A stretch of DNA of 64,000 bases from Candidatus Rariloculaceae bacterium (GCA_965221035.1 OZ244860.1:3733414-3797413), one strand, 5' to 3'; counted from the first letter of the stretch, positions 15,030-60,747 are shown. Program-made: numbers and translations. The notes: generated by a model from the sequence alone, not told the origin.

Positions 15030-15247
15030 GCTAGCACGGCACCCGGGGGAACTGTGCGGGTGTGACCCGGGCGGCCCCTGCGGCTCATCGCCACTAATGC
15101 AAATTTTTGTATAAACGGCGGAATGTCGGGGTCCCCAAACGCCAAGTTATAGACTCGAATTCGTCTGGTCGGCAGTCGGGCCAGTTCCTAACCCTGTTCG
15201 CCACCTTGTCAGGTGCTGATGACACGACCCTGCGGGAGCAAGACGAA

Positions 15248-18052
15248 ATGAAAACTCTGGATACGACCAACCCAATTCCGGTCGCCACGATAGCCGGATT
15301 CACGTTGATCGCCCTGTTGGCGATGGCTGGCAACGCGGTGGCGCAGGAAGATGAAATCACCGAGGCGAACCAGATCGAGGAGGTCGTGGTGACCGCCACG
15401 GCTACCGGCACGGCGATTCGGGGTGTTGCCCCCGTTGGCGCGGCGACATTGAGCATGAGCCAGGAAGACCTGCTCAACACGACCTCTGTTGACACGACTT
15501 CTTTCATACGCGATCTGCCGCAAGGGTCCGGGCTCATGCAGCAGGAAGAGCAGCCGACCGGGCAGGGAGGCGGCAACGTCGGTTACGCGCAGGGAGTGAA
15601 TCTTCGCGGCCTCGGTGACAATGCGACGCTTATCCTGTTCGACGGCCATCGCCTGGTCGGGCAGGGCATCACCGCGCAATTCGCGGACCCGAACCAGCTT
15701 CCCATTTCGGCCATCGAGCGCGTCGAAGTAGTGATGGATGCGGCATCGGCCGTGTACGGTTCGGACGCCATTGCGGGCGTCGTGAATTTTGTCCTCAGAG
15801 ACGATTTCGAGGGTGTCGAGATCAACGCGCGCACCACCAACAGCCTGTATCAGGCCAATGCCGTGGACGTGCTCGGCGGGTTCGGCTGGGATTCGGGCAA
15901 CGCGTGGCTCGGCGTCTTGTACGAAGACCGCGGCACCTTCAAGCGCAGCGAGCGGGAATATCTCAGGGAGGACTTGCGCGCATACGGAGGCAACGATAGT
16001 CGCTACGGCGCCACCCGGGGGGTTCCCTATGTGCGCCCCGGAGCGTTGCCCAACATCTATGCCAATGGGACGTTTTACGGTGTGCCGGCGACCGACGGGC
16101 AGATTCCGACAGCAGCGGAAGTGTTGGCGCTCGAGGGCCAGCACACCGTCTCCGATCTGGGAGACGAGCGGGACTACTGGCCGGCGCGTGAGCGCCTCGC
16201 GGTTTCGTTCCGCGCCCGCCAGAACTTCGCCGGCGACCGGGGCCAACTGACGTTGACCGGCGTGTACAGCGAGCGCGACAGCGAAATAGTGGAGTTCTCG
16301 AACTACGCGGCGGCGACCGTGAGATCCTCAAGCCCGTACTGGATCGACGGGCTGACCAACGCATCCAGCTACCAGATGACGTACAGCTATTTTCTGAACA
16401 ACGACGGGGCGGGCGCGGTGGATGTGGCCACGCGGCCGTCCGAACGGGCGTTGAACACGTACCTCGACCTCGTCTACGACATCAACGACAACTGGCAGCT
16501 GTCCCTGAACTACACGTTGGGCGACAACGAGACTTGCGGGCGTTGCGGCAAGCGCCAGAGCATCAGCCTGCCGGGCGTCGGCTTCACCACGTACGCGGAT
16601 CTTTTCAACCCGTTTGTCCAAGGGCCCCAGGCGGAGTGGTTCGACCTGGTGCACTATGGCACGGTCGACCAGCAAGCGTGGTTTGAAATGAACCGCGGGT
16701 CGGCCAAGTTCGAAGGCGGAATCTTCGAACTGCCGGGCGGCCAGGCCCGACTCGCGTTTGGTGCGGAATACGAGGGCACGGAGCACAGGTTCCTCAACCA
16801 CGGGACCAATGGACGAAGCACCGCCAATCCGCCGGCGTATCAGGTTCTTCGCGACACGAGTTCCGACCGGGACGTGACGGCGGCCTTCGTGGAGGCATAC
16901 CTGCCCGTGGCCGACACCGTCACCCTTAATCTGGCGGTGCGAAACGATGACTACAGCGACTTCGGCTCGACGACCAATCCGCGTCTTGGCGTCAGCTTCG
17001 AGCCGACCGAAAGCCTCACGCTGCGCGCCACCGTGGCGGAAGCCTTCCGGGCGCCCACCCTGGTCGAGCGCGACCCCGGCGTGTTGCAGCAGTTCAGGCG
17101 TGCGAATTACAGCAACGACGGGTCTCACGACGTTCCCGTGAGCAATGCCGGGCGGGGCACTACCTACGTGATCTACAAGATCGGCAACACCTTGGGCCTG
17201 CAGCCGGAAACGGCCGACATGTGGACGGCCGGCTTCGACTTCACTCCAGAAGCGGTAGAAGGGTTGCGGGTGTCGGCGACCTACTACAGCGTCGACTACA
17301 GCAATCGCATCGAAAGGTTGCCGAACGAGACTTCGGCATTGGCGAATGCACAAAACCGCGCGCTCTACGATCCCTTCATCCAGATTGCGCCTCAGCCCGA
17401 CACATGCGTGGCCGGCGACTTCTCCACCTACAATCAGCTGTATCAGGACTTTGTCGATGTCCCCGCCGACCTGCGCGGTTCCGCGGCCGGCGACTGCGGG
17501 CTGGAAGCCATCATCCTGAGCGGCGTGCGCAACACCAGCGCGGTGGTGCAGAGCGGTCTGGATCTTCAGGTGAACTACGACTGGTCCACCCCGATTGGCG
17601 AGTGGGGAGTGCGATTCAACGGCGCGAAGGTGCTCGGCCTGGAACGCGCCCTGGTGCCGGGCGCCGAAATGGTCGAGCAACTGGACAGGATCGGATTTCA
17701 GAACAGCACCCGCATGAACGGGGGCATCATCCTCAGATCCGGCAACTGGTACGCCAGTGTCGATGCCACCGTGGTCGGCAGCTACGTCAACGACCTGCCC
17801 ATCACCGTCGACGGTGTCACCTTGGAACCGAGTCGCGTGCCATCCTGGACCACGCTCGGCGCCAATCTCGCGTACGAGTTTCCGTTTGGCGAAGGCGGCA
17901 ACCTTGCGGATGGGTTGCGGGTGGGTTTGTCCGTGGACAACCTGACCGACCGCGATCCGCCGATCGTCCTGAACGATGATCGCGCGGTGGACTACAACAA
18001 CCACAATATTTTCGGCCGCATCTGGTCGTTGTCGCTGCAGAAACAATTCTGA
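15248..18052 (+). CDS. TonB-dependent receptor
   Basis: Signal peptide, IEEVVVTA, NLRGLG..TLILFDG, IERVEV..SAVYGSDAIAGVVNF, terminal F. Confidence 0.95.
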   Translation: MKTLDTTNPIPVATIAGFTLIALLAMAGNAVAQEDEITEANQIEEVVVTATATGTAIRGVAPVGAATLSMSQEDLLNTTSVDTTSFIRDLPQGSGLMQQEEQPTGQGGGNVGYAQGVNLRGLGDNATLILFDGHRLVGQGITAQFADPNQLPISAIERVEVVMDAASAVYGSDAIAGVVNFVLRDDFEGVEINARTTNSLYQANAVDVLGGFGWDSGNAWLGVLYEDRGTFKRSEREYLREDLRAYGGNDSRYGATRGVPYVRPGALPNIYANGTFYGVPATDGQIPTAAEVLALEGQHTVSDLGDERDYWPARERLAVSFRARQNFAGDRGQLTLTGVYSERDSEIVEFSNYAAATVRSSSPYWIDGLTNASSYQMTYSYFLNNDGAGAVDVATRPSERALNTYLDLVYDINDNWQLSLNYTLGDNETCGRCGKRQSISLPGVGFTTYADLFNPFVQGPQAEWFDLVHYGTVDQQAWFEMNRGSAKFEGGIFELPGGQARLAFGAEYEGTEHRFLNHGTNGRSTANPPAYQVLRDTSSDRDVTAAFVEAYLPVADTVTLNLAVRNDDYSDFGSTTNPRLGVSFEPTESLTLRATVAEAFRAPTLVERDPGVLQQFRRANYSNDGSHDVPVSNAGRGTTYVIYKIGNTLGLQPETADMWTAGFDFTPEAVEGLRVSATYYSVDYSNRIERLPNETSALANAQNRALYDPFIQIAPQPDTCVAGDFSTYNQLYQDFVDVPADLRGSAAGDCGLEAIILSGVRNTSAVVQSGLDLQVNYDWSTPIGEWGVRFNGAKVLGLERALVPGAEMVEQLDRIGFQNSTRMNGGIILRSGNWYASVDATVVGSYVNDLPITVDGVTLEPSRVPSWTTLGANLAYEFPFGEGGNLADGLRVGLSVDNLTDRDPPIVLNDDRAVDYNNHNIFGRIWSLSLQKQF

Positions 18053-18247
18053 TTCGAGCGGCCTGCTGGCAAGCGTGAGCGGTTCCTTTTGAACGGTCGC
18101 TTGCCAGCAGCTTCCACCCGACCGAAAATATCTTCCGGAATCGGTTCAAGGCATGTCTTTCGGCCTGCGGGAAACCTCGTGTTTCCTGCGGGCTCTTTTC
18201 GGATCACGCCTTGTGGCTCGAATTGTCGCAGCAGGGAGGAAGTCGGA

Positions 18248-18810
18248 TGCGCGGGCCAGTTCGCAAGTGGCGAAGTTGTACGTGGCATTCGTTCGCCGGC
18301 ATTGCGCCGCTGATCGTGGCGGGCGCATTGGCGGCACAGGACATGCCCGAACCGCCGGAGCTTGAGTTCGCCTTCGAAATCCAGGTGCAGGTCGCCGACC
18401 CTGTTGTCGTGGCGGATCTGCCAAGCGGGCAGAGGCGGCGAATCATCGACATCCTGGGCGGTACAGTCGAGGGGCCGGAAATTCGCGGAGAGGTATTGCC
18501 CGGCGGTGCGGACTGGCAGCTTATCCGCCAATCCGACGGGTTCACGGACATCGACGCCCGCTACACGATCCGGACCGACGACGGCCACCTGATTTACGTT
18601 TCGAATATCGGGATTCGCCACGCTCCGCCCCAGGTCATGAGCCGGTTGAATGCGGGTGAAGAGGTGGATCAGTCACTGATCTATTTCCGGGCCATACCGA
18701 CCTTCGAAACCGAGGCGCCGGGGCTGGATTGGCTGATGAGGCACGTTTTCGTGTCGGCCGGGGAACGCTACCCGAACGGCGTGGTGATACGATTCTGGAA
18801 GGTGCTGTAG
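18248..18810 (+). CDS. DUF3237 family protein
   Basis: RRIIDILGGTVEGP, PGGADWQ, DARYTIRTDDG, YFRAIPTFET. Confidence 0.85.
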
Positions 18811-18895: not shown

Positions 18896-20200
18896 ATGGC
18901 GCATAACACTCCGACCGCGATGATGGCGCACCGGCCCATGGGGCTGGCACAGTGGGTCGCCGTGGTGATCACCTTCGGGCTGAACGCCCTTGACGGGTTC
19001 GATGTACTGGCCATCAGCTTCGCCGGTCCCGGCATCGCTGCCGACTGGGGCGTGAACCAGGCGACGCTCGGCTGGGTGCTGTCGATGGAACTGATCGGTA
19101 TGGCGGTGGGTTCCCTGGTCCTCGGCATGGTCGGCGACAAGGCGGGTCGGCGAACGACGATCCTGTTCTGCCTGGTCCTGATGGCGGCGGGCATGTTCGG
19201 AGCCGGACAGTCGGGTGGGGTTTCGGAACTGCTTGCCTGGCGGTTGCTGACCGGCCTGGGCATCGGCGGCATGCTGGCTGTCACCGCGGCCGCCGTGGCG
19301 GAGTTTTCCAACCTGCGCTGGCGCGGGCTCGCCGTGGCCCTGATGGTCATCGGATACCCGATCGGCGGAATCCTCGGCGGGATCGGCGCACGTTACATCC
19401 TGACCCACAGCACGTGGCACGACATCTTCACGTACGGAGGCTGGGTGACGGCGGCGTTCATTCCCATCGTGTTCCTGCTGATGCCGGAATCGCCCGTGTT
19501 TCTGGACCGCATGCGCCGGCCCGAAGCGCTGGAGAAGATCAACCGTGCGTTTGCGCGGTTCGGCCACCCGCCGGCTTCCGAGTTGACACCTCTCGCCCCG
19601 GCGGCGCCGAAAGCGTCGCTGGCGGACATCTTCAAGCCGGGACTGGTGATGACGACCGCGTTGGTGACCGGCGCCTATTTTTCGCTGATCACCACGTTCT
19701 ACTTCCTCGTGAAATGGGTGCCCAACATCATCGTCGACATGGGGTATGAACCGGCCGCCGCGGCCGGTGTCCTGGCCTGGCTCAATGTCGGCGGCGCGAC
19801 CGGCGGAGCGATCTTCGGTTTACTGGCCACGCGGATTCAATTGCGGCCCCTGACCATCGGCGTCATGATCGGCGCGACCGCGATGATCATCTGGTTCGGC
19901 AGCGGTGCCGATGACCTGACAGGGTTGACGGTCATCGTCGCCTGCGCCGGATTCTTCACCAACTCGGCGATCTGCGGCATGTATGCGCTGTTTGCGAAGG
20001 TGTTCCCCACCCATGTGCGATCAACGGGAACCGGCTTCGCGATCGGGGTCGGTCGCGGCGGATCGGTGCTGGCGCCGGTGGTGGCGGGCTACCTGTTCCA
20101 GGCGGGGTTCGGGTTGCAGTTTGTCGCGGTGGTGATGGGTTGCGGGGGGTTGCTCGCGGCGAGCTTGCTGTTTTTCCTCAAGGAACGCGCGGCGGATTAG
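18896..20200 (+). CDS. MFS aromatic acid:H+ symporter (AAHS-like)
   Basis: LDGFD, DKAGRR, GLGIGG, PESP, RSTGTGFAIGVGRGG. Confidence 0.9.
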   Translation: MAHNTPTAMMAHRPMGLAQWVAVVITFGLNALDGFDVLAISFAGPGIAADWGVNQATLGWVLSMELIGMAVGSLVLGMVGDKAGRRTTILFCLVLMAAGMFGAGQSGGVSELLAWRLLTGLGIGGMLAVTAAAVAEFSNLRWRGLAVALMVIGYPIGGILGGIGARYILTHSTWHDIFTYGGWVTAAFIPIVFLLMPESPVFLDRMRRPEALEKINRAFARFGHPPASELTPLAPAAPKASLADIFKPGLVMTTALVTGAYFSLITTFYFLVKWVPNIIVDMGYEPAAAAGVLAWLNVGGATGGAIFGLLATRIQLRPLTIGVMIGATAMIIWFGSGADDLTGLTVIVACAGFFTNSAICGMYALFAKVFPTHVRSTGTGFAIGVGRGGSVLAPVVAGYLFQAGFGLQFVAVVMGCGGLLAASLLFFLKERAAD

Positions 20201-20205
20201 CCTGA

Positions 20206-20242
20206 ATTTGCGCATTCGATACGAAGTATTCGCCGAAACGAT
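20206..20242 (+). promoter_or_regulatory. nod-box-like LysR site (class I, N7)
   Basis: ATT-TGCGCATTC-GAT-ACGAAGT-ATT-CGCCGAAAC-GAT. Confidence 0.6.
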
Positions 20243-20369
20243 TGGCCGCCGATTTCTGGTCGCCTTAATCTTGATCGGATTCGCTGGAGCACGCGAATCG
20301 GAACCGAGTTTGCGGACCAGTCGATTCAGGACAAAGCGATCAAAATGAAGCGAATCCTTGGGGGCCGAC

Positions 20370-21665
20370 ATGTTTAACGACAGGAATTTCACCAGGCAAG
20401 CCATTGTTCTGATGCTCTTGGGGTTCCTGTTGATGTTCTTCTACGTCGGCTTGCAGACTGACCACCTGAACGTGCTCACGCCCTATCTCCAGGCGACATA
20501 TGGGTGGAGCGATCTGGCCATCACCAATCCTGTGACGGCCGCCGCGCAGGTTGGCATCGCGCTGTATCTGGTGGTTGGTGCGGCCTATGTGAAATACGGC
20601 GTAAGGAAAATATTGGTTCCCTCGATACTGGTGTTGGCGCTCGGGTGCGTCGGCATAGCCATAGCCGCGGAGAACTACGCGATTTATGCCGTTAGCGTGT
20701 TTGTGGTCCGCGCCATGGTCATACCGTTGCTGTTGGGCGCCTTCCTGCTCTGCGCCAACTGGTTCATCAAGTACAGGGGGCGCGCGTTGGGGGTGGTCAC
20801 CGCCGGCGCTCCGTTTTTCTCCATCATAGGCATCGCGACCATGACCTGGTTGACCAACGATGTGGGTCTCGGCATGAACGTCTACCTCGTGATTGCCGCC
20901 ATTCTGGTCGGTATGAGCATCGTAACCGCTCGGTTGGTCAGGGACACGCCGGAAGACTGCGGACTCTACCCGGACGGTGCGGATCACCGCCCCGTTTCCG
21001 AACAGGGGGAAACAGGGAAACCGATTCCCGTCATGCAGCTTCTCAGTGAGGTCAGGGCATGGCAATTGATCATCTCCTACGGAATCATGCAATTCGTCAT
21101 TGTCGCGATGATGGCCTATATGGCTGTGCGCTACATCAGCCTCAGCACGCCGGAAGATGTCCCGAACCTGTTCGTGAGCCAGGCGCTGATCTGGTTGTCT
21201 GTGGGAGCCGCTTGCGGGATCCCCATGAGTTACGTGATCGGCTGGATCGACGACAAGCTGGGGTCAATCAAGGCATCGCTCGTGTTGAATGTCTTGTTTT
21301 TCTTCGCGGTGGTGCCGCTTGCGCTCATGCCCGAGGGTGGAAACAGGATGCTGATGGTGATCTGGGCATTTGGAGTCGCCTGCATGACCGGCGGCGTCCC
21401 GACCATGCACCCCTGCATAACCTCCTATGTCTATGGGCGCAAGCACTATATGGAAGCCAACAAGTGGCTCATGACCATCCAGGCGATACCGATGGCATTT
21501 GCGATCGCATTCATGGCGGCCTTCAATGACGCCGGCATACTGACCAACGCCTACTACGTTCTCATGGGACTGCTGGTCGTTTCGTTCGTGACGATACTGA
21601 CAATGCGCAATCTCCCCGACGCGAACGCCGAGGACAGGGACTACGCGCGCGCCGCATCAACCTGA
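20370..21665 (+). CDS. MFS transporter
   Basis: About 12 hydrophobic segments; NWFIKYRGRALG, GWIDDKLG. Confidence 0.85.
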   Translation: MFNDRNFTRQAIVLMLLGFLLMFFYVGLQTDHLNVLTPYLQATYGWSDLAITNPVTAAAQVGIALYLVVGAAYVKYGVRKILVPSILVLALGCVGIAIAAENYAIYAVSVFVVRAMVIPLLLGAFLLCANWFIKYRGRALGVVTAGAPFFSIIGIATMTWLTNDVGLGMNVYLVIAAILVGMSIVTARLVRDTPEDCGLYPDGADHRPVSEQGETGKPIPVMQLLSEVRAWQLIISYGIMQFVIVAMMAYMAVRYISLSTPEDVPNLFVSQALIWLSVGAACGIPMSYVIGWIDDKLGSIKASLVLNVLFFFAVVPLALMPEGGNRMLMVIWAFGVACMTGGVPTMHPCITSYVYGRKHYMEANKWLMTIQAIPMAFAIAFMAAFNDAGILTNAYYVLMGLLVVSFVTILTMRNLPDANAEDRDYARAAST

Positions 21666-21750
21666 TGCGACATGATTGGGATAATGTGGCCCCAGGTAGC
21701 GGTTCCGGCTACCCGGGCGCCAGGTCAATTTAGCAACGAGGAACCGCACA

Positions 21751-22374
21751 ATGGAATATTCCGTTACCCAGGACGATATCGGTACACATCTACACTGGAA
21801 GCACGACGGGGTCACCGCCCAGATGATCGACTGGTTCTGGAGCAACATGGAGAAGGGGGTCATTCTCTGGCATCCGGAAGAGCATGAGCCGCTGACCTGG
21901 GAAGTGCCTCCCAAGCACGGCAACCCGATCCATTCGATTCACCTCGCACCGCAAACGTGGTCGGACGGTACACGCAGAAATCTCTACATCCGCTTTGAGG
22001 ATCTCGACGATGTGCCGACAAGATTCAAGGACGTGATCGACCATGAGCACGTGGTTGTCGTGGCCGGCCTCGGATTCGGGCCCGAGAGCATGGAGAATCC
22101 GGACCCCATGGGGTATCGCATTCACCAATGGGAGAAGACCGATTACGGAGTCAGGGGGCGTTCAACCGGCATCGGCACACGTGTGAAGGAAACCCATGAA
22201 GACGGCATGATCTGGGCCAAGCACTGCGCGCAGGAAGTGGGCAACTGGGGAGTGTTCCTGCCCCAGCTGTTTACGCTGTGGAAGGTGGTCAAGAACACGG
22301 ACTACAATCCGTTCACCGACCTGACAGTCGAAGGTAGCGGGGACACGCTGCGGTACAAGTATATTGATCGGTAA
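21751..22374 (+). CDS. PhlG / phloretin-hydrolase-like C-C hydrolase (short form)
   Basis: GVTAQMIDWFW...LWHPEEH, IRFED and C-terminal KHCAQE...FLPQLF match the recalled DAPG-hydrolase family motifs and metal ligands. Confidence 0.75.
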   Translation: MEYSVTQDDIGTHLHWKHDGVTAQMIDWFWSNMEKGVILWHPEEHEPLTWEVPPKHGNPIHSIHLAPQTWSDGTRRNLYIRFEDLDDVPTRFKDVIDHEHVVVVAGLGFGPESMENPDPMGYRIHQWEKTDYGVRGRSTGIGTRVKETHEDGMIWAKHCAQEVGNWGVFLPQLFTLWKVVKNTDYNPFTDLTVEGSGDTLRYKYIDR

Positions 22375-22391
22375 AATGCCTTGTTCGTGGG

Positions 22392-24911
22392 TCAGAAATT
22401 GACCGAAACCCCAACGCCATACGTGCGCGGCGGAGCCAGCGTCACGTACTCGGCCCCTCCGCCGAATGACGGACCGTAGTTCGTCTGAACCGCCTCGTTT
22501 CCGATATTCCGCGCATAGCCGTGAACAAACCAGGAGTTATCGGCTGAGGCCCAATTCAGATACAGGTTGTACAGACTGTAATCGTCTTGAACGGACTTGC
22601 CCGGATTGGCGATGTTTGCGCCCGGAGCTCCACCCAGGGACCAATATTCGCCGCGGTGTTCAGCGTTCAGACTTGCTGTCAGATTGCTGCCTCCTGGCAA
22701 CTGGAATATGTGGCTGTAGGTCAGATTGACTGCAGTCTCGGGCGAATTCTGCAAGACCAGGCCATCGTAGGACGCGTTGAGTGTGGAAAGATCGCCGTAC
22801 ATCGACGAGATTGCGTCGGAATCCGTGAAACCGACCTGGTTCATGGTCGCTTCAAAGTCGGCTGCCGAGGGAAGGCCTGTAGGAGCCGTTGTGATCGAAT
22901 CCAGCAATTCCAGCGACAGATCCAACCGGTCGGAGTCCGTAAGCAACCAATTCAGTTCGATGTCGACTCCGGAGCTGATGAGGTCCGGAACCGTCGATGC
23001 CAGTATCTGGTAGCACGCATAACCGGTTAGCGGGTCAAAGAATGCAGGGTTCGGAAACGGGAATGCCGAGCACGCGGGAAACGGTGGTGCGAACTGCGGG
23101 TTGACCTCCACGCCCACACTGCCTTCCAGCATCCGGTCATGGTATTCGGAGTCGAAATATTCGAAATTGAACTGCAAGCGATCTTGAAGCCAGCGGCTCT
23201 TGTAACCGAGAGTTATTTGATCCAGCGTTTCCGCAACGGTGCCTTCAGGAGCAAACGCAAATATGTTGCCTGCCTGATATCCGGTGCTGTAAACGGCGTA
23301 CGCCATCGAATCTCCGCCTGAAAGGTCGTATTCGACGCCAAGACGGTAAGTCACGTCATCCCAGGCTCTCGCGCCGGTGCTCGCAGGCGGATAACCTTGC
23401 GGTCCGGGACCTGTGCTGTCACCGGGTGTATCCGAGAGTCTAAGGTAGGATTTTTCGTCGTCGCTTTGGCGAACACCCGCCACGATGCGCAGCGTATCCG
23501 TTACCGGAAACGCACCGTTCACATAGACCGAGAGCGTTTCGTGCGCGTTGTTGTCGAACGACCAGCAATACGCATTCTCGGTAAGGCTCACCGCCGGACA
23601 GAACGGTCCCGCTCCGAACCCGGGAAAGCCGGCGGAACGAAATGTTCCGTCAAGCTCGGTATCGTAATAATAGAGGCCGGCGAGCCACTCGAACGGCGCG
23701 TCCGGGGAAGAGGTCAACTGCACATCGACCTGGGTGGTCTCCTGCCGTCGGTCCTCGCTTCGCCAGTCGGTGCCGCGCGGGGGTTCTTCGGACAGAAAGT
23801 GCGCTTTCTGGAAGGAAGGCGCCACGGTCAGGGTTCCGATACCCGTGATCCAGTCAACGTCTGCGCTGAACTGGTCGATCGTCGTATTGCGGAAAGGGCT
23901 GTTCGGCCAGGAGTCAAACGGATAACCATCGTCCCAGGGATCGGACCGGTCCCGGTACGATGTGCCATCGTTGATATGGCCGTACAACGTTCCCATGGTC
24001 ACGTCGTAACAGGGTGACGTCGCGCACACGCCACCGGGCGGCCCAGGCGGCCCACCCGGTGGTGCGGGAGGGCGGATGGGATCCTGATCCGGATTGTACG
24101 CTTCCCAGTAGCCGCCATATGTGAGGACGCTCGTGTCGACACCATTACCGCCGATCGTGTTTTGGGACGCCGTCAGGACAATGTTCAAAGCGTCATCGGG
24201 CTGAATGCGATACTTGATACGGTAGTTCGTCAAATCCGAGTCGCCCGCCCCGGAAGAAATGTAACCGTTCCTCTGGACGTCCGAATAGGCGATACGGATT
24301 GCCTGATTGTCGGCCAGCGGGATATTGACCACGCCTTCGAAACTGGCCAGGTCAAAACTTCCAACCTCCAGCGAACCGTTTCCTTCAAATTCGAAAACCG
24401 GATCATTGGATACCAGGCTCACCGCGCCCGCCAGCGAGGCGGCCCCAAGCGTTGTGCTCTGCGTACCGCGCATCACCTCGACCTGCTGCAGGTCCAGTGA
24501 ACCCCCGCGTACCGTTTCGCCCCTATTCTGGTACACCCCATCGATGAGCACCGCCACGACGGGTGTTCCCGTGCCTGGGGGCTGCGGTCCGGAACCAACG
24601 CCGATTCCCCTCAAGAAAAAGGAGTCGCCGACCTGGCTTCCCTGCGAGGCCACCCCAACGACCCCACGCATGATCTCGTCGATGCGTTTCTTGCCTTGGG
24701 CCCGCAATTGTTCGCCGGTGAACACTTGAATGGACATGGACGTTTTCTGCAGATCGGCTTCACGTCTTTCTGCGGTGACGACTATCTCCTCAAGCATCGA
24801 GCCGGCTTCATCCTGGGCTGGCGAATTTGTCGTGTGCAGCAAGCCAACCGCTGCCGCGAGGGTGCCGACAATGTTAAGAATCCGCCTTGGCTGAATTGGT
24901 CGATTCATCAT
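22392..24911 (-). CDS. TonB-dependent receptor
   Basis: LEEIVVTAERRE, VEVMRGTQST, PRTYGVGVSVNF. Confidence 0.95.
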   Translation of the reverse strand: MMNRPIQPRRILNIVGTLAAAVGLLHTTNSPAQDEAGSMLEEIVVTAERREADLQKTSMSIQVFTGEQLRAQGKKRIDEIMRGVVGVASQGSQVGDSFFLRGIGVGSGPQPPGTGTPVVAVLIDGVYQNRGETVRGGSLDLQQVEVMRGTQSTTLGAASLAGAVSLVSNDPVFEFEGNGSLEVGSFDLASFEGVVNIPLADNQAIRIAYSDVQRNGYISSGAGDSDLTNYRIKYRIQPDDALNIVLTASQNTIGGNGVDTSVLTYGGYWEAYNPDQDPIRPPAPPGGPPGPPGGVCATSPCYDVTMGTLYGHINDGTSYRDRSDPWDDGYPFDSWPNSPFRNTTIDQFSADVDWITGIGTLTVAPSFQKAHFLSEEPPRGTDWRSEDRRQETTQVDVQLTSSPDAPFEWLAGLYYYDTELDGTFRSAGFPGFGAGPFCPAVSLTENAYCWSFDNNAHETLSVYVNGAFPVTDTLRIVAGVRQSDDEKSYLRLSDTPGDSTGPGPQGYPPASTGARAWDDVTYRLGVEYDLSGGDSMAYAVYSTGYQAGNIFAFAPEGTVAETLDQITLGYKSRWLQDRLQFNFEYFDSEYHDRMLEGSVGVEVNPQFAPPFPACSAFPFPNPAFFDPLTGYACYQILASTVPDLISSGVDIELNWLLTDSDRLDLSLELLDSITTAPTGLPSAADFEATMNQVGFTDSDAISSMYGDLSTLNASYDGLVLQNSPETAVNLTYSHIFQLPGGSNLTASLNAEHRGEYWSLGGAPGANIANPGKSVQDDYSLYNLYLNWASADNSWFVHGYARNIGNEAVQTNYGPSFGGGAEYVTLAPPRTYGVGVSVNF

Positions 24912-24978
24912 CTTGTAACCCGCCGAGCTTAATTGAAAATCAGGCTGCCATGTTCGGCGATCGATAGTCAGTTATCCA

Positions 24979-25015
24979 ATCGTGGATTTCGATAGCAGCT
25001 ATCGCATTCACCTAT
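24979..25015 (-). promoter_or_regulatory. nod-box-like LysR site (class I) upstream of TBDR
   Basis: Minus strand ATA-GGTGAATGC-GAT-AGCTGCT-ATC-GAAATCCAC-GAT. Confidence 0.65.
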
Positions 25016-25028
25016 TCTGGGCGCCTGT

Positions 25029-25829
25029 TCACGCAGTGGTGATATACGGCCTCAGATGCCGTTTGAAGTCGTCCGTTGGCGCTTCGAGCAGGAATTGGCA
25101 CACAAAGTCCACCGCCGGCTGCAGAAAGGGGTAGCGGTCGTAAGTGGCCCAGGGTGGCTTCGAATAATGGACCTTGGACTCGATGACCGCATCGCGCCAG
25201 GCGTTGGCGTTCTCGTACCAGAGCTCAGTGACCCTTGCAAACGGGCCCAACCGTGGTTCCCGTACTTGCCTGTAGCTAAAGAAACGCTTGAGTCCCGGTT
25301 GCGAGGCGACTTCCGGCGCGTGAACCTTCAGGAACCATTCTTCACCCTCTTCGACAGACACGCCGTCAGGGTACTTGTGCGCTGTGATCCAGCGTATGAT
25401 GGTTCCGTCGTCCAGAGTCAGTCCCTTGCCCAGGAAATCGTCCGCACGACGGCTCTGGACGAATATCATGACCGGCGGATGGGGTCCGCCTGGGCTCCCA
25501 GCCCAACCGGCGGTACGCGCTTCGCCTTCAGGAAGGCCCACCGCCGCTGCATAGTTCGAGGGCCAGACTTCGCTCAACGCGGTGCCGTGGTCCATTACGC
25601 CACCTATCCAGGGCGGTTCGCGCCACCAGTGTTCCGTCATGCGCCAGTTGTAAGGAAAAAAGCGTTCCGAGCCCTCCGGCGCTGGCACGGCGCGATAGCT
25701 CGTGTAGCGCTCCAGGATGGGATCAAGCTGGCCAACCGTCTCGCGGGCATGATCCTTGAGCAGCCATCGCTCCATCAGGGGCAACTCGTTCATGTCGGCG
25801 AGATTCAATATCAGGTAGCTGCGCAGCAT
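25029..25829 (-). CDS. Bacterial-type chalcone isomerase homolog (EthD-like two-domain fold)
   Basis: Colinear motifs with Eubacterium ramulus CHI as recalled: RWLLKDH, MTEHWW, DFLGKGLTLDDG, YPDGVSVEEGEEW, ELWYEN, KPPWA...PFLQP, terminal YIT; GGAGG RBS. Confidence 0.8.
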   Translation of the reverse strand: MLRSYLILNLADMNELPLMERWLLKDHARETVGQLDPILERYTSYRAVPAPEGSERFFPYNWRMTEHWWREPPWIGGVMDHGTALSEVWPSNYAAAVGLPEGEARTAGWAGSPGGPHPPVMIFVQSRRADDFLGKGLTLDDGTIIRWITAHKYPDGVSVEEGEEWFLKVHAPEVASQPGLKRFFSYRQVREPRLGPFARVTELWYENANAWRDAVIESKVHYSKPPWATYDRYPFLQPAVDFVCQFLLEAPTDDFKRHLRPYITTA

Positions 25830-25886
25830 GCTGTACCTCCGGCGTGATGATGAAATAAGGTAATTCATGGAGTCACCATGTCCAAA

Positions 25887-25923
25887 ATCGCTATTATCGA
25901 TTGCACACATAGATGGGTCGGAT
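25887..25923 (-). promoter_or_regulatory. nod-box-like LysR site (class I) in the CHI/LysR divergent region
   Basis: Minus strand ATC-CGACCCATC-TAT-GTGTGCA-ATC-GATAATAGC-GAT. Confidence 0.65.
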
Positions 25924-25969
25924 GCGACAGCACAGGATGGACTCGACGCAGCACCCCGGGAGCTTCTAA

Positions 25970-26896
25970 ATGCATTTCAATCGCTTTGACCTGAATTTGC
26001 TTGTCGCGCTGGACGCGCTTCTCGAAGAAAAAAACGTGACACGCGCGTCGGAAAGACTGTTCATGTCCCAACCCGCGATGAGCGGGGCCCTCCAGAGGCT
26101 TCGGGAACGATTCAATGATCCGTTGTTGATCCGGGTAGGCAGAACGATGGAGTTGACGCCGCGCGCCAGGACCCTGATCGAACCCGTAAGGGAAATACTG
26201 CTCCAGATTCAGAATACCATCGACGTCGAGCCGGAATTCGACCCGGCGACCGCGAGAAGGTCGTTTACGGTGCTCATGAGCGACTACGTGTCAACGGTAC
26301 TGGTGCCCGAGGTGCTGCGCCGAATCTCGACCAGGGCGCCCGGTGTGAAGATACAGGTCGCCATGCTGGGCGGGCGGGATCACGAGCGGTTGGAAGCCGG
26401 TCGGGCGGACTTGATGATTCGGGCCCGCGTCGACCCAAGGAGCGAATCCGCGCTGATTTCGGAGAACCTCAATGTCGATGAACTGTTCGACGACGACTGG
26501 GTTTGCGTGGCGGACGCCAATCATCCGGCTATCGCTGACGAACTGACGCTGGAGGAATACGTCAGTCTTCCCCACGTTTCACACGATTTTGGCGGGCGGA
26601 CTCCCATGCTTGAAGAAATTTCGCACGCACAGATTTCACTGGACCTCGACGTTCGCGCGGCGGCGCCGAATTTCTCGACTCTGGTGTTCATGTTGCCTGG
26701 CACCCGGTTGATCGCCGTGATACCGCGGCGTCTGGCGCGGACGCTGTCCAGGAATGTGGATATGAAAATCATGAAGCCACCCGTTGAGCTTCCGCCGCTG
26801 AATGAAGTGTTGATCTGGCACAATCGCCACGAGTTGGATGCGGCGCATTCCTGGTTGCGGGGCGTGTTCAGGGAAACCGCGCGAGAGCTGGATTGA
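25970..26896 (+). CDS. LysR regulator, NodD-like
   Basis: FDLNLLVALDALL, SQPAMSGAL.RLR..FNDPL, FDPAT..R.F...SDY. Confidence 0.92.
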   Translation: MHFNRFDLNLLVALDALLEEKNVTRASERLFMSQPAMSGALQRLRERFNDPLLIRVGRTMELTPRARTLIEPVREILLQIQNTIDVEPEFDPATARRSFTVLMSDYVSTVLVPEVLRRISTRAPGVKIQVAMLGGRDHERLEAGRADLMIRARVDPRSESALISENLNVDELFDDDWVCVADANHPAIADELTLEEYVSLPHVSHDFGGRTPMLEEISHAQISLDLDVRAAAPNFSTLVFMLPGTRLIAVIPRRLARTLSRNVDMKIMKPPVELPPLNEVLIWHNRHELDAAHSWLRGVFRETARELD

Positions 26897-27007
26897 AGGC
26901 TCAAATCGAGAGCAAATACCTCGTATCGATATAATCGATTCATTCATCAATAGGCACTGCTGTACGATGCGAAATTCGGGATGCAGGTGCTGGCAACAAG
27001 GGTCGAA

Positions 27008-27412
27008 ATGGCGTCGGAGCAGGCTTTCGAATTTCATCACGGCGGCGTAAGCGTTCCAGACCTCGATGCGGCAATCGGCTGGTATCGGGAGATGCTCGGA
27101 TTTGAGGTCGAGAAGCGGTTTTCGATTCCGGGTGCAAATGCCGACGTTGCGATGGTCCGCAGAGGCGACCTGCGATTCGAGTTATTCGAGGTGATGGATG
27201 CCGATCCGCTGCCCGAAGATCGTCGCCACCCTGATCGCGACTTGCGTACTCACGGTAACAAACACATTGCCTTCCGGGTCGAAGATGCCGAAGCATTCCT
27301 TGAGCTGATGACCAGGAAGAACGCCGATGTGGCAATGGTTGTTAGGGAAGATTTCGGAACGGGCTTCTTCATCCGCGACTGCGCCGGCAATCTCATCGAG
27401 TTTGTTGAATGA
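27008..27412 (+). CDS. VOC/glyoxalase family protein
   Basis: FHHGGVSVPDLD, HIAFRV, RDCAGNLIEFVE. Confidence 0.88.
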   Translation: MASEQAFEFHHGGVSVPDLDAAIGWYREMLGFEVEKRFSIPGANADVAMVRRGDLRFELFEVMDADPLPEDRRHPDRDLRTHGNKHIAFRVEDAEAFLELMTRKNADVAMVVREDFGTGFFIRDCAGNLIEFVE

Positions 27413-27462: not shown

Positions 27463-28401
27463 TCAGAAATTCACCTTGTCTGCGCCCTTGAGATCCAGCA
27501 TCTCGCGAACGTCGTCGGGAGACGCGATCTCGTAGCCGAGTTCCTCGATGATGCGTCGCACCTTGGCGACCTGTTCCGCATTCGACTCCGCCAGCTTGCC
27601 GCGCTCGATGAAGAGGGAGTCCTCTAGCCCAACCCTCACGTTGCCCCCCAGCATGACGGCCAGTGTGGCCATCGGTATCTGCGCGGCACCCGCACCGAGC
27701 ACCGACCACTGGTACTGGTCGCCGAACAGGCGGTCCGCGGTGCGCTTCATGAATACCAGGTTGTCCGGTTCGGCGCCGATCCCGCCGAGTATGCCCATGA
27801 CGAACTGCAGGAATATCGGCGGTCTGAAAAGACCCGTGTCCATGCAGAACTTGAGATTGTACAAGTGGCCGACGTCGTAGCATTCATGCTCGAACTTGAC
27901 GTTGTGCCCGCGTCCCAGCGCCTTTTCGACCTGGGCGATGTCGCGGAAGGTGTTGCGGAAGATGTAGCTGTCCGAATTTTCTACGTAGTCTCGCTCCCAG
28001 TCGAACTTCCATGATTCGAACCGCTGTGCCAGCGGATGGAAGGAGAAGTTCATGCTGCCCATGTTCAGGGAGCTCATTTCCGGTGAGGCCACCTCGGAGG
28101 GTCTGATGCGGTCGTCGATGGACGTCTTGAGACTGCCGCCGGTGGAGAGATTGACGACCGAGTCGGTGTGTTTCTTGATGGTCGGAAGAAAGCGCATGAA
28201 GTGGTCAGGGTCGAGCGACACGGAACCGTCCGAGGGATCGCGCGCGTGCAGATGCAGTACGGCGGCGCCGGCTTCAGCCGCATCGATGGCCTGCCGGGCG
28301 ATGTCCTCGGAGCGGTAGGGCAGGGCGTCGGACATGGTCGGCGTGTGGATCGCCCCTGTAATCGCACAGGTTATTGCTACCTTTCTCGGTTTCCTTGCCA
28401 T
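27463..28401 (-). CDS. BKACE/DUF849 beta-keto acid cleavage enzyme (triacetate acetoacetate-lyase candidate)
   Basis: ITCAITGAIHTP, HLHARD, LNMGSMNF, RVGLED. Confidence 0.92.
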   Translation of the reverse strand: MARKPRKVAITCAITGAIHTPTMSDALPYRSEDIARQAIDAAEAGAAVLHLHARDPSDGSVSLDPDHFMRFLPTIKKHTDSVVNLSTGGSLKTSIDDRIRPSEVASPEMSSLNMGSMNFSFHPLAQRFESWKFDWERDYVENSDSYIFRNTFRDIAQVEKALGRGHNVKFEHECYDVGHLYNLKFCMDTGLFRPPIFLQFVMGILGGIGAEPDNLVFMKRTADRLFGDQYQWSVLGAGAAQIPMATLAVMLGGNVRVGLEDSLFIERGKLAESNAEQVAKVRRIIEELGYEIASPDDVREMLDLKGADKVNF

Positions 28402-28704: not shown

Positions 28705-30150
28705 TCAGCCTGCGGTGCTCCGATTCAGGTAGCCGGGTTGGCCGGGCCGCACCAGGTTGCCGACGACCAGGCACCCGATGGCGACGACGACGGTGACCAG
28801 GGCGTTCGGCATCCCCGCCATACCGAGCCAGTCGGGCAGGTCGCTGAACGACCATAACGAATTGGCGATCCAGCTTGCCAGCAGCGTCGTGATGGCCACA
28901 CCCTGGTTGCAGCGCCAGAACAAGCCGAAAACCAGCACCCAGAATACCGGCACGAGCCAGGCGAACAGCCAGTTCATCGCCGCGAGAATCGGCGGCAGGA
29001 AGGATGCCACGCCGATTGCGGTGCCTGCCACGATCACGATGACGACGCGCATCACCAGCGTCATACGCCCTTCGTCTGCGTTCGGGTTATACAGGTTTCG
29101 ATAAATGTCATGGCTGAAGATCGTCGCGATCGCCAGGGAGATCATCGCGAAGGTGGAAAGTATCGCCGCGAGGAACGCGGCCAGCAGCATCGCCGCGAGC
29201 CAGTTGGGAAGGTAGGCCACGAGCATGGAGGTGGCGGCCACCTTCTGACCGAGCACCTGAAATTCGGGAATCGACTTCGCCGCGAGGCCGAGCACCACGG
29301 CGAACACGCCGAACAACCCGTTGACCGGGGCGGCGATCCACAGGGCGCGCATGATGGTCCTTTCGCTTTTCGCCGCCATGGCAGGCTGCAGCAGCATCTG
29401 GTTGATGCCCTGGCTGAAGATCACCGCAACCAGCGTACCGAGCACGAATGTCAGCATAATCTCCGCGTTGCCGAAGATCGAGAGCATGTGCGCCTGGTCG
29501 GCACCCAGGTAGAACTGCTCGACCGAATCGAAATTCCGGCCGGGCAGGTTCAGGGCCACGACGATGACGGCGAGGATCAACCCAACGTACATGACCACCG
29601 CGTTGACCAGGTTGACGATACCGATTTCGTTGATGCCGGCAAGGATGACATAGAGGATGCCGAGAACGCCGCCGACGACGGCGCCGGTGGGTATGCTCCA
29701 GTCGGTGAGCGAGGCGAAGATGATGCCGATACCCTGCGCCTCGACGGTCAATATCCCGAACAGCACCCCGGCCATGACGCAGGATACGAGCAGACGCGTC
29801 TCCACGCCGTAGCTCATCTGGAGCAGCTGCGGCACGGTCGCCACGCCGACTCTCCTCAGCCAGACGCCCGTGCCGAGACATACGACCACCAACAGGATCA
29901 CGTGTGCGAGGCTGAACCAGACAGCGGCGGCGCCCAGTATCCAGGCCATCTCGAAGACGCCGAGGATATGCGCGGTACCCAGGACTGTCAGCGCAAGCGT
30001 GACGGCGACCACAGGCATCGGCAGACTGCGATGGGCCAGGGCGAATTCGTCCTTGGCCGTCGCGTCCCTGCGGCGCTGCAGCCAGAGGCCGAGCCCGACG
30101 ATCACGATGACTTCGTACGCCAGGACGGCGCCTAGCAATGTGTAATTCAT
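28705..30150 (-). CDS. Sodium:solute symporter family protein
   Basis: About 13 TM segments; EFALAHRSL, LAAFLAAILST, IYRNLYNPNA. Confidence 0.9.
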   Translation of the reverse strand: MNYTLLGAVLAYEVIVIVGLGLWLQRRRDATAKDEFALAHRSLPMPVVAVTLALTVLGTAHILGVFEMAWILGAAAVWFSLAHVILLVVVCLGTGVWLRRVGVATVPQLLQMSYGVETRLLVSCVMAGVLFGILTVEAQGIGIIFASLTDWSIPTGAVVGGVLGILYVILAGINEIGIVNLVNAVVMYVGLILAVIVVALNLPGRNFDSVEQFYLGADQAHMLSIFGNAEIMLTFVLGTLVAVIFSQGINQMLLQPAMAAKSERTIMRALWIAAPVNGLFGVFAVVLGLAAKSIPEFQVLGQKVAATSMLVAYLPNWLAAMLLAAFLAAILSTFAMISLAIATIFSHDIYRNLYNPNADEGRMTLVMRVVIVIVAGTAIGVASFLPPILAAMNWLFAWLVPVFWVLVFGLFWRCNQGVAITTLLASWIANSLWSFSDLPDWLGMAGMPNALVTVVVAIGCLVVGNLVRPGQPGYLNRSTAG

Positions 30151-31106: not shown

Positions 31107-31883
31107 TCATTGCGCTTCGCCGGGCACGTTGCCGGCGACTCGCTTGACGATGTCGTCCCGCGTCGCGATCAGCGGTTCCTTGAGCATGAATTCTATCCGG
31201 TCGTAGCGCGTCTTGGGCACGGGAATCGAAAGCGCCAGCGGGCGGTCGAATGCGTCGAGGAGGGCCGTGCCCACCGCGCAGATTCCGTCGGTGTGCTCCT
31301 CAATGTCGTAAGCGATGCCGCTGGCAATCGTCGCCCGCACCTGTTGTTCCAGTAGCTCCGGGTCCGTGATCGTCGCGTCGGTGTCGTTCGCCAGAGGACG
31401 ACGGAGCAACGTTCGTCGCCGCTCTTTGGGGAGGCAGGCAAGCAACGCCTTGCCGTTCGCCGTGCTGTGCAGCGGAAAGGCGGTTCCGACACGCGAGATT
31501 GCCGCGAGACGGTGCGAGCCGGCGACCTGGTCGATGAAGATCGCCTGGTTGTCGCTCAGGATCGACAAGTCCACGGTTTCACCAACCGTCCGTGACAGTT
31601 CGACGAGGTACGGGCGCGCCAGACCGACCATGTCGGTCGTCGCTGAGCGGCCGAGACGGACCAGTGCCGGACCCAGCTTGACCCGGCCATTGGAGGAGGC
31701 CGGCATCAGGAATTTCTCCTCGACCAGCGACGCGACGATGCGCTGAACCGTCGAACGGGCCAGATTCACGCGACCCGCGATCACTCCCAGGCTCAAGCCC
31801 GCGGTTTCATGCTCGAGCGTGCGCAATACCTCGGCCGCCCTGGAAATCACCTGTATGCTGGTGCGTTCTCGCGCCTGGGCCAT
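31107..31883 (-). CDS. IclR family regulator
   Basis: SIQVISRA..VL, LARSTVQRI, PLHSTANGKALL, EEHTDGICAV. Confidence 0.92.
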   Translation of the reverse strand: MAQARERTSIQVISRAAEVLRTLEHETAGLSLGVIAGRVNLARSTVQRIVASLVEEKFLMPASSNGRVKLGPALVRLGRSATTDMVGLARPYLVELSRTVGETVDLSILSDNQAIFIDQVAGSHRLAAISRVGTAFPLHSTANGKALLACLPKERRRTLLRRPLANDTDATITDPELLEQQVRATIASGIAYDIEEHTDGICAVGTALLDAFDRPLALSIPVPKTRYDRIEFMLKEPLIATRDDIVKRVAGNVPGEAQ

Positions 31884-31884
31884 A

Positions 31885-31957
31885 TTGACAATCCAGCTTC
31901 CATTCGTACCGTATGCTTGTATCGTATAGTAGTACACATATATCGCATAGCGGTAAA
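31885..31957 (+). promoter_or_regulatory. Probable promoter and IclR operator region
   Basis: TTGACA-16-TACCGT, then imperfect palindromes TGTATCGTATAGTAGTACA and TATCGCATAGCGGTA in an AT-rich divergent spacer. Confidence 0.5.
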
Positions 31958-31973
31958 TTTCAGGAGAAAGCAA

Positions 31974-32843
31974 ATGCCCGGATGGAAAGAAGGTGATTGG
32001 CGAGACGAAGATCTCTGCCGATTCGAGGAGTCCAACCTCGACAACCGCATGGGGATCGAGTTCTATGATCTGACCCACCCTTGGGGCGTGGGGCAGCCGT
32101 GCTGGCCGTACTTCGAGGACGTGAAGATCGAGCGCCTTCACAACATGTCAAAGTCCGGCGTCCTCACGCAGAAGATCACGACCGTCATGCACTCGGGCAC
32201 GCACATTGACGCGCCGGGTCATGTCGTGCCGGGAACGCCCTTCATGGACGAGGTTCCGCTGCCGAATTTCTTCGGCACCGGTGTGGTTGTTTCGATTCCA
32301 AAGAAGAAATGGGAGGTCATCACCCCGGAAGACCTCGAAAATGCGCGGCCGAAGATACGCCAGGGCGACATCGTCATCGTCAATACGGGCTGGCACAAGT
32401 ACTACGGCGACAACCAGCACTACTACGGCTACTCGCCGGGCTTCTACAAGGAAGCGGGGGAGTGGTTCGTCGAAAGGAAAGTCAAGATGGTCGGTTCCGA
32501 CACGCAAGCGCTCGACCACCCGTTGGGCACCGCCATCGCGCCCCACGGACCCGGCAAGCCGGACGGTCTGTTGCCGCATGTCTGCCAGGAATACCTTGAA
32601 ACCACGGGGCGCACCGTGCTTGAGGATTTCCCCGACTGGGAACCGTGCCACAAGGCCATCCTGTCGAACGGCATCCTGGGATTCGAGAACGTCGGCGGCG
32701 ACATCGACAAGGTGACCGGCAAGCGCGTCACGTTTGCCGCGTTCCCATGGCGCTGGAAGAGGGGCGACGGCTGCATCGTTCGCCTGGTCGCCATGCTCGA
32801 TCCCAGCGGCGAGTATCGCATCGAGACCGGCGAGTCCGACTGA
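31974..32843 (+). CDS. Cyclase-family metallohydrolase (dihydrophloroglucinol cyclohydrolase candidate)
   Basis: HSGTHIDAPGH motif; gene context. Confidence 0.88.
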   Translation: MPGWKEGDWRDEDLCRFEESNLDNRMGIEFYDLTHPWGVGQPCWPYFEDVKIERLHNMSKSGVLTQKITTVMHSGTHIDAPGHVVPGTPFMDEVPLPNFFGTGVVVSIPKKKWEVITPEDLENARPKIRQGDIVIVNTGWHKYYGDNQHYYGYSPGFYKEAGEWFVERKVKMVGSDTQALDHPLGTAIAPHGPGKPDGLLPHVCQEYLETTGRTVLEDFPDWEPCHKAILSNGILGFENVGGDIDKVTGKRVTFAAFPWRWKRGDGCIVRLVAMLDPSGEYRIETGESD

Positions 32844-33224: not shown

Positions 33225-34021
33225 GCCTGCCGAAAATCGACACCTCCAAGCTGTTCGACGTCTCCGGAAAATCGGCGATCATCGTCGGCGCGACGGGTTC
33301 GTTCGGCAAGGTCTGCGCCGCGACGCTGGGCGACGCGGGGGCAAGGCTCGTCATCGCCGCCGGCAACGCGGACAATCTCGCCGAGGTGGGCGGGGAGCTG
33401 CGTGCCGCCGGTGCCGAGGCGGTCGAGGTCGCAAGAAGGCCGAATACGCCCGAAGATTGCGACGCGATCGTTTCCGCCGCGGTCGAGGCCCACGGCGGAG
33501 TCGACATCCTCGTGGTCGCTTCGGGTTTCAATGAAGTCTCGCCCATCGTCGACATGGAGCCGGAGCGTTTCGGGAAGATCATGCTCGCCAACGTCGACGG
33601 GCCGTGGCTGATGGCGAGATCGGCCGGCCGGCGGATGATCGAGCAGGGCAGGGGAGGCAAGGTCGTGTTCACGTCTTCGGCGCGCGGCAAGCTGGGCCAC
33701 CCGGCAGGATATTCGGCCTATTGCACTTCGAAGTCGGCGACCGACGGGCTCACCAAGGCCCTGGGCTGCGAGTGGGGCAAGTACGGCATCACAGTCAATG
33801 CGCTCGGACCGACCGTGTTCCGCTCGCCGGTGACGGAGTGGATGTTCGGGGAAGACGAGCACGCGCGCAGGGTTCGCGAGGGATTTGTGGCCCGGGTGCC
33901 GGTGGGCCGGCTCGGCGAGCCGGAAGATCTGGCGGGGCCGCTCCTGTTCCTGTGTTCGGCGGCGTCCGATTTCCACACCGGCCACATCGTGTACGCCGAC
34001 GGCGGCTACACGGCGGGTTGA
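33221..34021 (+). CDS. SDR oxidoreductase (phloroglucinol reductase candidate)
   Basis: GATGSFG, YCTSK, VNALGP, DGGYTA. Confidence 0.9.
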   Translation: MSLPKIDTSKLFDVSGKSAIIVGATGSFGKVCAATLGDAGARLVIAAGNADNLAEVGGELRAAGAEAVEVARRPNTPEDCDAIVSAAVEAHGGVDILVVASGFNEVSPIVDMEPERFGKIMLANVDGPWLMARSAGRRMIEQGRGGKVVFTSSARGKLGHPAGYSAYCTSKSATDGLTKALGCEWGKYGITVNALGPTVFRSPVTEWMFGEDEHARRVREGFVARVPVGRLGEPEDLAGPLLFLCSAASDFHTGHIVYADGGYTAG

Positions 34022-34026
34022 ATCCC

Positions 34027-60650: not shown

Positions 60651-60747
60651 GGCGAAAATCCCCATAGAGTAAGTTGCACGACCTAGACTAGCAGCTCGCT
60701 ACGCAGCAGTAAAATCAATAGATTTGGTGGAGTTGCATTGACGGAAC

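Follow-up and report, generated by a model that had tools for sequence, protein, structure and literature searches.

Predicted 37-bp nod-box-like operators of a NodD-like LysR-type regulator around a bacterial chalcone isomerase gene in Candidatus Rariloculaceae bacterium

We analyzed a stretch of 64,000 nucleotides from Candidatus Rariloculaceae bacterium (GCA_965221035.1 OZ244860.1:3733414-3797413), hereafter called the window, in which the gene for a bacterial chalcone isomerase (CHI) stands divergently from the gene for a NodD-like LysR-type regulator (25970-26896, + strand; Pfam HTH_1 and LysR_substrate). Four sites of 37 bp, which follow the frame of two consecutive ATC-N9-GAT dyads, precede genes for an MFS transporter, a TonB-dependent receptor, CHI and a VOC/glyoxalase-family protein. 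Judged from their sequences, these sites are probably operators of the adjacent LysR-type regulator and would define one regulon. One regulon across both strands is the best reading, because architecture, orientation and conservation are shared among the sites and because the flanking NodD-like LysR gene co-occurs with CHI. Unless they are marked as genome positions (whole-genome length, 3,817,996 bases), coordinates are counted from the first letter of the window.

Site 1 (20206-20242, + strand) reads ATT-N9-GAT-N7-ATT-N9-GAT. It is located 6 bp past the stop codon of the gene MFS1 and 128 bp before the start codon of MFS2. Site 2 (24979-25015, - strand) has the central palindrome GATAGC-N-GCTATC and is located 14 bp past the CHI stop codon and 68 bp before the start codon of TBDR2, the gene for the TonB-dependent receptor. 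Site 3 (25887-25923, - strand) combines a perfect proximal ATC-N9-GAT with a degenerate distal dyad, ATC-N9-TAT, and is placed in the 137-bp divergent region between the start codons of CHI (25832) and lysR (25970). Site 4 (26903-26939, + strand) has a weak distal dyad, AAA-N9-AAT, followed by a perfect proximal ATC-N9-GAT (26925-26939), and ends 69 bp before the start codon of the VOC gene. Before this last gene, the first-pass annotation had recorded only a half site at 26916-26930, which reads ATA-N9-GAT. An element does exist there. However, the better dyad is that at 26925-26939, and the half site is really part of the full fourth 37-base site. The same annotation had placed its sites in intergenic regions upstream of catabolic genes. 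This description holds, and all sites are intergenic, when CHI starts at ATG 25832. The start at 25910 given in the open reading frame (ORF) list was rejected because GGAGG is located 7 nt upstream of ATG 25832. This start codon is also supported by Pfam, since in the longer ORF the match starts only at residue 26.

The degenerate pattern from which sites 1 to 3 were originally described has exactly three matches in the window, at 20206-20242, 24979-25015 and 25887-25923. The expectation from dinucleotide shuffles is 0.08 matches per window, and three or more matches were obtained in none of 100 shuffles. On the + strand the pattern is found only at site 1, and sites 2 and 3 fit on the - strand. 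TBDR2 and CHI are themselves on the - strand, so that each of the three sites reads AT(C/T/A)...GAT toward the downstream gene. In the whole genome (3.82 Mb) the pattern occurs at five places, namely the three in the window, genome 716-752 and genome 316189. The last is a perfect 12/12 site; it lies inside a 358-aa ORF of another region and was set aside as a chance match. Since the pattern had been fitted after the fact, we also scored a fixed skeleton, ATC-N9-GAT-N7-ATC-N9-GAT, with which sites 1, 2 and 3 agree at 10, 11 and 11 of the 12 positions, respectively. The single ATC-N9-GAT dyad, which always includes T-N11-A, the dyad symmetry of LysR-type operators, is at chance level in the window (22 versus 20.2 expected). 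Only the double architecture is informative. At a threshold of at least 10/12, the skeleton is found at 103 places genome-wide, 15 of which are non-coding. The non-coding set (577,913 bases) was defined by crude gene calls (2,792 genes), and site 3 is miscounted as coding in this tally owing to the premature CHI start in the ORF list. About 10 non-coding places at this threshold lie outside the gene island. At this density, the four intergenic regions, 495 bp in all, would hold about 0.009 sites, and three are seen.

Conservation of the sites was examined in related genomes. Among 60 relatives searched, CHI was found in two (G012 and G013; 83% identity), and two further genomes, G061 and G062, also possess it (84%). 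G012 is very close to G013, as is G061 to G062; together with the genome of this study (G000), they amount to about three independent lineages. The relatives are labelled as Gammaproteobacteria and Steroidobacteraceae metagenome-assembled genomes (MAGs). Protein identities to them are 78-86%, which argues against near-identical strains. The lineages differ in gene order, yet every site stays with its own gene. For example, site 1 stands before the MFS2 orthologue in all five genomes while the upstream neighbor differs by lineage. A gene for a PhlG-like protein follows MFS2 in four of the five, and none follows in the G061 stretch. In the alignment of the five genomes, 33 of the 37 columns of site 1 are invariant versus 6 of 41 in the upstream flank; downstream, in the stretch that begins 10 columns after the site and runs up to the start codon, the figure is 37 of 117. 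The start codon itself, ATG 20370, was set by the conserved ATGTTTAACGAC in this alignment. Site 2 is likewise found before TBDR2 in all five genomes, with 11-12 of the 12 skeleton positions (12/12 in G061 and G062), and the TBDR2 orthologues that follow the orthologous site in four genomes are 78-85% identical. Invariant columns number 24 of 37 within site 2 versus 9 of 73 in its upstream flank; of the 67 columns from site 2 to the start codon, 33 do not vary. In G012 and G013, site 3 is present at 10/12 between lysR and CHI. In G061 and G062, the full unit of site 4 is kept, as are a TACGAT at 24-29 nt downstream and the ATG at 27008. Counted over the five genomes, seven different promoter regions contain the 37-bp frame.

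Eleven sites, all from the other four genomes, were used to build a matrix of 41 columns (34.7 bits), and both strands of G000 (about 7.6 million positions) were scanned with it. The top four distinct places were site 2 (46.7 bits), site 1 (36.8 bits), site 4 (21.3 bits) and genome 3805914-3805954, before a third TonB receptor gene (20.8 bits). Sites 1 and 2 had orthologues in the training set. Site 4 had none, and is therefore the cleanest independent hit. The next places, genome 2264222 and 1440165, scored 19.2 bits each, and their neighbors are not flavonoid-related as judged by their first residues. The columns of high information are AT, GATA, TATC and GATT. In other words, the unit is a 37-bp palindrome in which four triplets are spaced by 12, 10 and 12 bp and the center reads GATA-N5-TATC. 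It should be noted that the matrix is biased to AT-rich DNA (loci of 27-32% G+C without a LysR gene score 13-20 bits); therefore, scores were not compared across loci.

The regulator encoded at 25970-26896 matches the annotated NodD2 of S. fredii over its full length, with 113 of 305 residues identical (37%; E 1e-48), and the helix-turn-helix stretch SQPAMS-A---LR is common to both proteins. LysR genes on Novosphingobium, Burkholderia and Cupriavidus plasmids are slightly closer (39-41%). The best NCBIfam models are BsrA (197 bits versus a cut-off of 480) and LeuO, both far below cut-off. The closest solved relatives are 2uyf and 1utb (127 bits), which we take to be DntR. By the comparisons that were run, the regulator is NodD-like but is probably not a NodD orthologue. 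Among the 60 relatives, its orthologues (85-86%) were found only in G012 and G013, the same pair that possesses CHI, and the next best protein has 42% identity. Separately, in a tblastn search the N-terminal part of the regulator matched a 219-aa ORF at 52620-53279 (- strand) over 132 residues (39%); this ORF may be a truncated LysR gene.

The centers of the two ATC-N9-GAT dyads are 22 bp, or two helical turns, apart. This is the layout that would be expected for a LysR tetramer on four half-sites. When bound, the regulator may cover the -35 box and the DNA immediately 5' of it, and binding of an effector would make it activate transcription. In every site the GAT end points to the downstream gene. 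The 3' GAT is followed by T and a TTGG-type hexamer, namely TTGGCC in site 1, TTGGAT in site 2 and TTGGAC in site 3, and the TTGG extension is conserved. A -10-like hexamer of the form TAnnnT or xAxxAT is found 16-18 bp after the -35-like hexamer. The predicted geometry agrees with that reported for FdeR, whose 60-bp footprint extends over the -35 box and whose activation depends on a flavonoid (PMC10799723). NodD has the same geometry. Four promoters in the window are candidates for this control. They are those of MFS2 with the PhlG-like hydrolase gene, of TBDR2, of CHI together with lysR, which would be autoregulated from the shared divergent region, and of the VOC gene. At least two promoter regions outside the window may be added, one of the third TonB receptor gene and one of an operon for an FAD-oxidoreductase, a short-chain dehydrogenase/reductase (SDR) and a second CHI. 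The effector is likely to be a flavanone, a chalcone, a dihydrochalcone or an early breakdown product.

Sites with the same frame outside the window lie 46-60 kb downstream. Two of them, genome 3805916-3805952 and 3806694-3806734, precede the gene for the third TonB receptor (genome 3806759-3808888), which is followed by the gene for a PepSY_TM protein. Another, genome 716-752, is located between two operons, and its orthologues in G061 and G062 are 12/12. The minus-strand operon encodes a 208-aa protein, a 620-aa FAD oxidoreductase, an SDR and the second CHI (38% identity), and the plus-strand genes encode a zinc-dependent alcohol dehydrogenase (Zn-ADH), a 647-aa protein and a BD-FAE esterase. 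The first-pass annotation had proposed a regulon that links genes on both strands. The conserved sites, their shared architecture and orientation and the NodD-like LysR gene are in accord with this proposal, and the predicted regulon is larger than was proposed. The ORF of the 208-aa protein reads across the contig junction (genome 3817502-3817996 joined to 1-132), and its homologues are 60-78% identical. An ORF that has homologues and spans the contig ends suggests that the contig is circular and that the flavonoid island is continuous. Pieces of the PhlG-like gene recur at genome 3799973-3800192, about 2.6 kb past the end of the window. These pieces, of 152 bp (98%) and 78 bp (82%), correspond to window positions 21952-22103 and 22292-22369 and look like the remnant of a second copy. 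This remnant explains a coding-type skeleton match at genome 3799973-3800192.

Several points weigh against assigning the sites to one regulon of the adjacent LysR-type regulator. The related genomes are kin, and the training sites of the matrix were picked by the author through skeleton and position. Site 3, which is next to the regulator gene, scored 7.0 bits, a level that is reached at 68 genome positions, 31 of them non-coding. In G061 and G062, site 3 keeps only the proximal core (AATCAATAATA-like); the spacing to GAT is altered and the distal dyad is lost. The co-occurrence of the regulator gene with CHI cannot count as independent evidence, because both belong to one island. The promoter hexamers match at only 6-8 of 12 positions, chosen from 15 searched combinations of offset and spacer. 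Since these matches are weak, the activator geometry is inferred. The proximal dyad of site 4 holds TATAAT, which a consensus scan reads as a -10 box. This arrangement fits repression or a plain promoter, and repression is therefore possible at site 4. Furthermore, the genome encodes two more LysR paralogues with 35-37% identity to the regulator, one of them in the window (61919-62824).

These paralogues raise the idea that the sites are real operators of another factor, either a paralogous LysR such as that at 61919-62824 or a regulator encoded elsewhere, in which case the adjacent LysR would drive only its own divergent promoter or some other target. The idea agrees with the use of ATC-N9-GAT by several LysR regulators and with the weak fit of site 3, beside the regulator gene, to the shared motif. 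However, the paralogue at 61919-62824 (+ strand, about 35% identity) is divergent from genes of its own, which encode a Rieske/VanA-like oxygenase (60748-61869, - strand) and an extradiol-type dioxygenase (59718-60665, - strand), and an amidohydrolase gene lies downstream. No ATC-N9-GAT was found in its 49-bp intergenic region. This locus is probably a separate arm for aromatic O-demethylation and ring cleavage with its own regulator. Moreover, orthologues of 85-86% in site-bearing genomes exist for the 25970 regulator only, and in G012 and G013 this regulator stays next to CHI with the site between them. Thus, we regard control by another factor as unlikely.

The conserved blocks might also represent the promoter architecture of co-inherited genes, such as an UP-element, -35 and -10 boxes or sites of global factors, with no dedicated regulator. 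They do run into -35-like hexamers, site 4 contains TATAAT, and site 3 bears TATTAT on the lysR strand, a possible -10 box of lysR. This explanation is nevertheless quite improbable, since conservation falls on the four dyad triplets, spaced by 12, 10 and 12 bp, and on the central GATA-N5-TATC, as expected of a multimeric helix-turn-helix protein and not of sigma-70 contacts, and since one 37-bp frame is repeated at all seven promoter regions. Chance similarity to a pattern tuned to three sequences, for which the post hoc pattern, the chance-level single dyad, the 103 skeleton places and the agreement of five genome hits with 0.08 per 64 kb could be cited, was tested and not upheld, and has a very slight probability in view of three sites against about 0.009 predicted, orthologous sites conserved above their flanks and an independently trained matrix that ranks the sites top.

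The genes under the predicted control of the NodD-like regulator, and their neighbors, were identified from an ORF listing and Pfam. Before site 1, all on the + strand, are genes for a Zn-ADH (13914-15029), a TonB receptor (15107-18052), a DUF3237 protein (18211-18810) and MFS1 (18896-20200). MFS2 (20370-21665, + strand; Pfam MFS_1, 8.8e-23) is the first gene 3' of site 1. The second gene of the site-1 operon (21751-22374, + strand) encodes a 207-aa protein like PhlG/phloretin hydrolase (DAPG-hydrolase-like). Its Pfam DAPG_hydrolase score of 22.0 bits is just under the cut-off of 22.7; all 30 Atlas matches bear the DAPG_hydrolase family (top score, 0.98), and a search against solved structures gave no match for this protein. 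TBDR2 (22392-24911, - strand; Pfam Plug, 1.8e-13) is 3' of site 2. CHI (25029-25832, - strand; 267 aa; Pfam Chalcone_N, PF18232, 4.4e-12) aligns along its whole length (residues 3-265, E 1e-25) with chalcone isomerases of known structure (chains 3zph, 4c9s and 4d06). The VOC/glyoxalase-family gene (27008-27412, + strand; Pfam Glyoxalase_4, 1e-14) had its start moved to the conserved ATG 27008. Beyond it are genes for a BKACE enzyme (27463-28401, - strand; NCBIfam 3,5-dioxohexanoate:acetyl-CoA acetone transferase, 515 bits versus a cut-off of 430), an SSF symporter (28705-30150, - strand), an IclR regulator (31107-32141, - strand), a cyclase-family protein (31809-32843, + strand) and a 3-hydroxyacyl-CoA dehydrogenase-family protein (33604-34944, + strand). 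The BKACE, cyclase-family and 3-hydroxyacyl-CoA dehydrogenase-family genes, together with that of the IclR regulator, resemble a phloroglucinol-degradation arm, and no nod-box-like site precedes them.

We also compared distant CHI loci, 113 in number (33 from genomes and 80 from metagenomes). A LysR homologue is present in the flanks of only seven, with 32-39% identity to the regulator. These NodD-like LysR genes are at the Acidobacteriaceae-type loci L020, L086, L087, L090 and L091, at L021 (an Ideonella MAG) and at L023. At L021, a 10/12 site stands directly before the LysR start codon. At L023, the region before CHI contains a proximal half that resembles the one in site 1 and ends in GATTGGCC. 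A 9/12 look-alike, counted by eye, is found about 150 bp before CHI at the acidobacterial loci L020, L090 and L091. These three observations are leads only. Of 37 genome loci, drawn from several phyla, 15 have a PhlG-like gene next to CHI, and a homologue of the cyclase adjoins CHI in loci L019, L032 and L039.

The first-pass annotation had reasoned that likeness to the nod box independently suggests a flavonoid inducer. This argument is not supported, because the same box serves LysR regulators without a flavonoid link, such as MexT (PMC2794183); ATC-N9-GAT boxes are described as a general motif of the LysR family. Likeness of the box does not by itself indicate flavonoids. The suggestion of a flavonoid is drawn instead from the genes under predicted control, namely those for CHI, the PhlG-like hydrolase and the phloroglucinol steps, and from the precedent of FdeR. 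FdeR is a NodD-like LysR regulator with a 60-bp footprint over the -35 box of a divergent flavonoid-degradation operon, and it activates with naringenin (PMC10799723). The MexT regulon of Pseudomonas aeruginosa resembles the predicted regulon in that a LysR-type regulator with a nod-box-like ATC-N9-GAT core acts on about ten scattered targets and the regulon is defined by the motif. It differs in its single dyad with a 3' extension (ATCA-N5-GTCGAT-N4-ACYAT) and in its efflux and redox-stress targets (PMC2794183).

In rhizobia, the nod box is a 47-bp element with the palindrome ATC-N9-GAT (PMC5596368). The 37-bp sites have in common with the rhizobial system two ATC-N9-GAT dyads 7 bp apart, and the recognition helices of the two regulators are nearly identical. 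In contrast, the predicted targets here are genes for an MFS transporter, a PhlG-like hydrolase, a TonB receptor, CHI and a VOC protein and not nod, nol or noe operons. The first-pass annotation had stated that nod genes are absent; our search of the genome for NodA (PF02474) gave no match, and the control genomes were likewise silent, so that this search is unvalidated. On the symbiotic plasmid NZ_CP137018.1 of S. fredii, an intergenic 12/12 double ATC-N9-GAT is present at record positions 89483-89519 (43484-43520 of locus L165). This site is unannotated in the PLSDB table, and we take it to be a nod box. At the 25 positions outside the skeleton, site 3 has 14 identities to it, whereas the remaining sites of the window and of G000 have 6-11 of 25 (9, 11 and 9 for sites 1, 2 and 4), and the null value is 6.5 +/- 2.3 (n = 206). 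The sites share the nod-box frame and would function in a similar way, but are probably not members of the rhizobial nod-box set.

With the gut-anaerobe route, which runs in the order CHI, enoate reductase, phloretin hydrolase and phloroglucinol (PMC10470551), the window shares genes for CHI, a PhlG-like hydrolase, BKACE, a cyclase-family protein and a 3-hydroxyacyl-CoA dehydrogenase-family protein. It differs in that the host is a Gammaproteobacterium and in that TonB-dependent receptors and a LysR regulator are present; this regulator is missing from 106 of the 113 distant CHI loci. In our literature search, which lacked most subscription journals, no description of CHI clusters under the control of a LysR regulator or of nod-box sites was found. 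We put forward, as a tentative idea, that a complete operator system of the nod-box type, including a NodD-like sensor for flavonoids, may exist outside rhizobia as a multi-operon catabolic regulon. In a soil Gammaproteobacterium, this regulon might couple TonB-dependent flavonoid uptake across the outer membrane to the CHI/phloretin-hydrolase/phloroglucinol route known as that of gut anaerobes. If this is true, it would support the recruitment of rhizobial NodD/nod-box signalling from flavonoid-catabolic regulation. In addition, flavonoid uptake would be connected with an MFS transporter and with TonB-dependent receptors, the latter being the first candidates for flavonoid receptors of this type whose regulator is defined. 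The CHI/PhlG-like pathway, mainly known from gut anaerobes, would be placed under dedicated control in soil Gammaproteobacteria. For annotation, the predicted regulon would join genes of both strands across about 60 kb, contig ends included. If the regulator senses flavonoids, it would be the second natural flavonoid-responsive catabolic LysR system after FdeR, and several compact 37-bp predicted operators of graded strength may be useful as biosensor parts.

The system proposed here would resemble the FdeR/fdeA system of Herbaspirillum seropedicae in three respects: a NodD-like LysR gene is divergent from flavonoid-catabolic genes, a long operator overlaps the -35 box, and the regulator is a flavonoid-dependent activator (PMC10799723 and PMC12809279). 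FdeR is described with one operator of 60-73 bp with many overlapping T-N11-A boxes, one operon and an oxidative "meta" naringenin pathway. In contrast, at least four separate 37-bp operators are predicted in our window, with more outside it, and these are of the clean double ATC-N9-GAT type; FdeR was compared by description only. The predicted targets differ as well, since they comprise TonB receptors, an MFS transporter and a CHI/PhlG-like pathway of the reductive type. By analogy, FdeR is the closest functional precedent, and the system in Candidatus Rariloculaceae bacterium would be of an already known sort.

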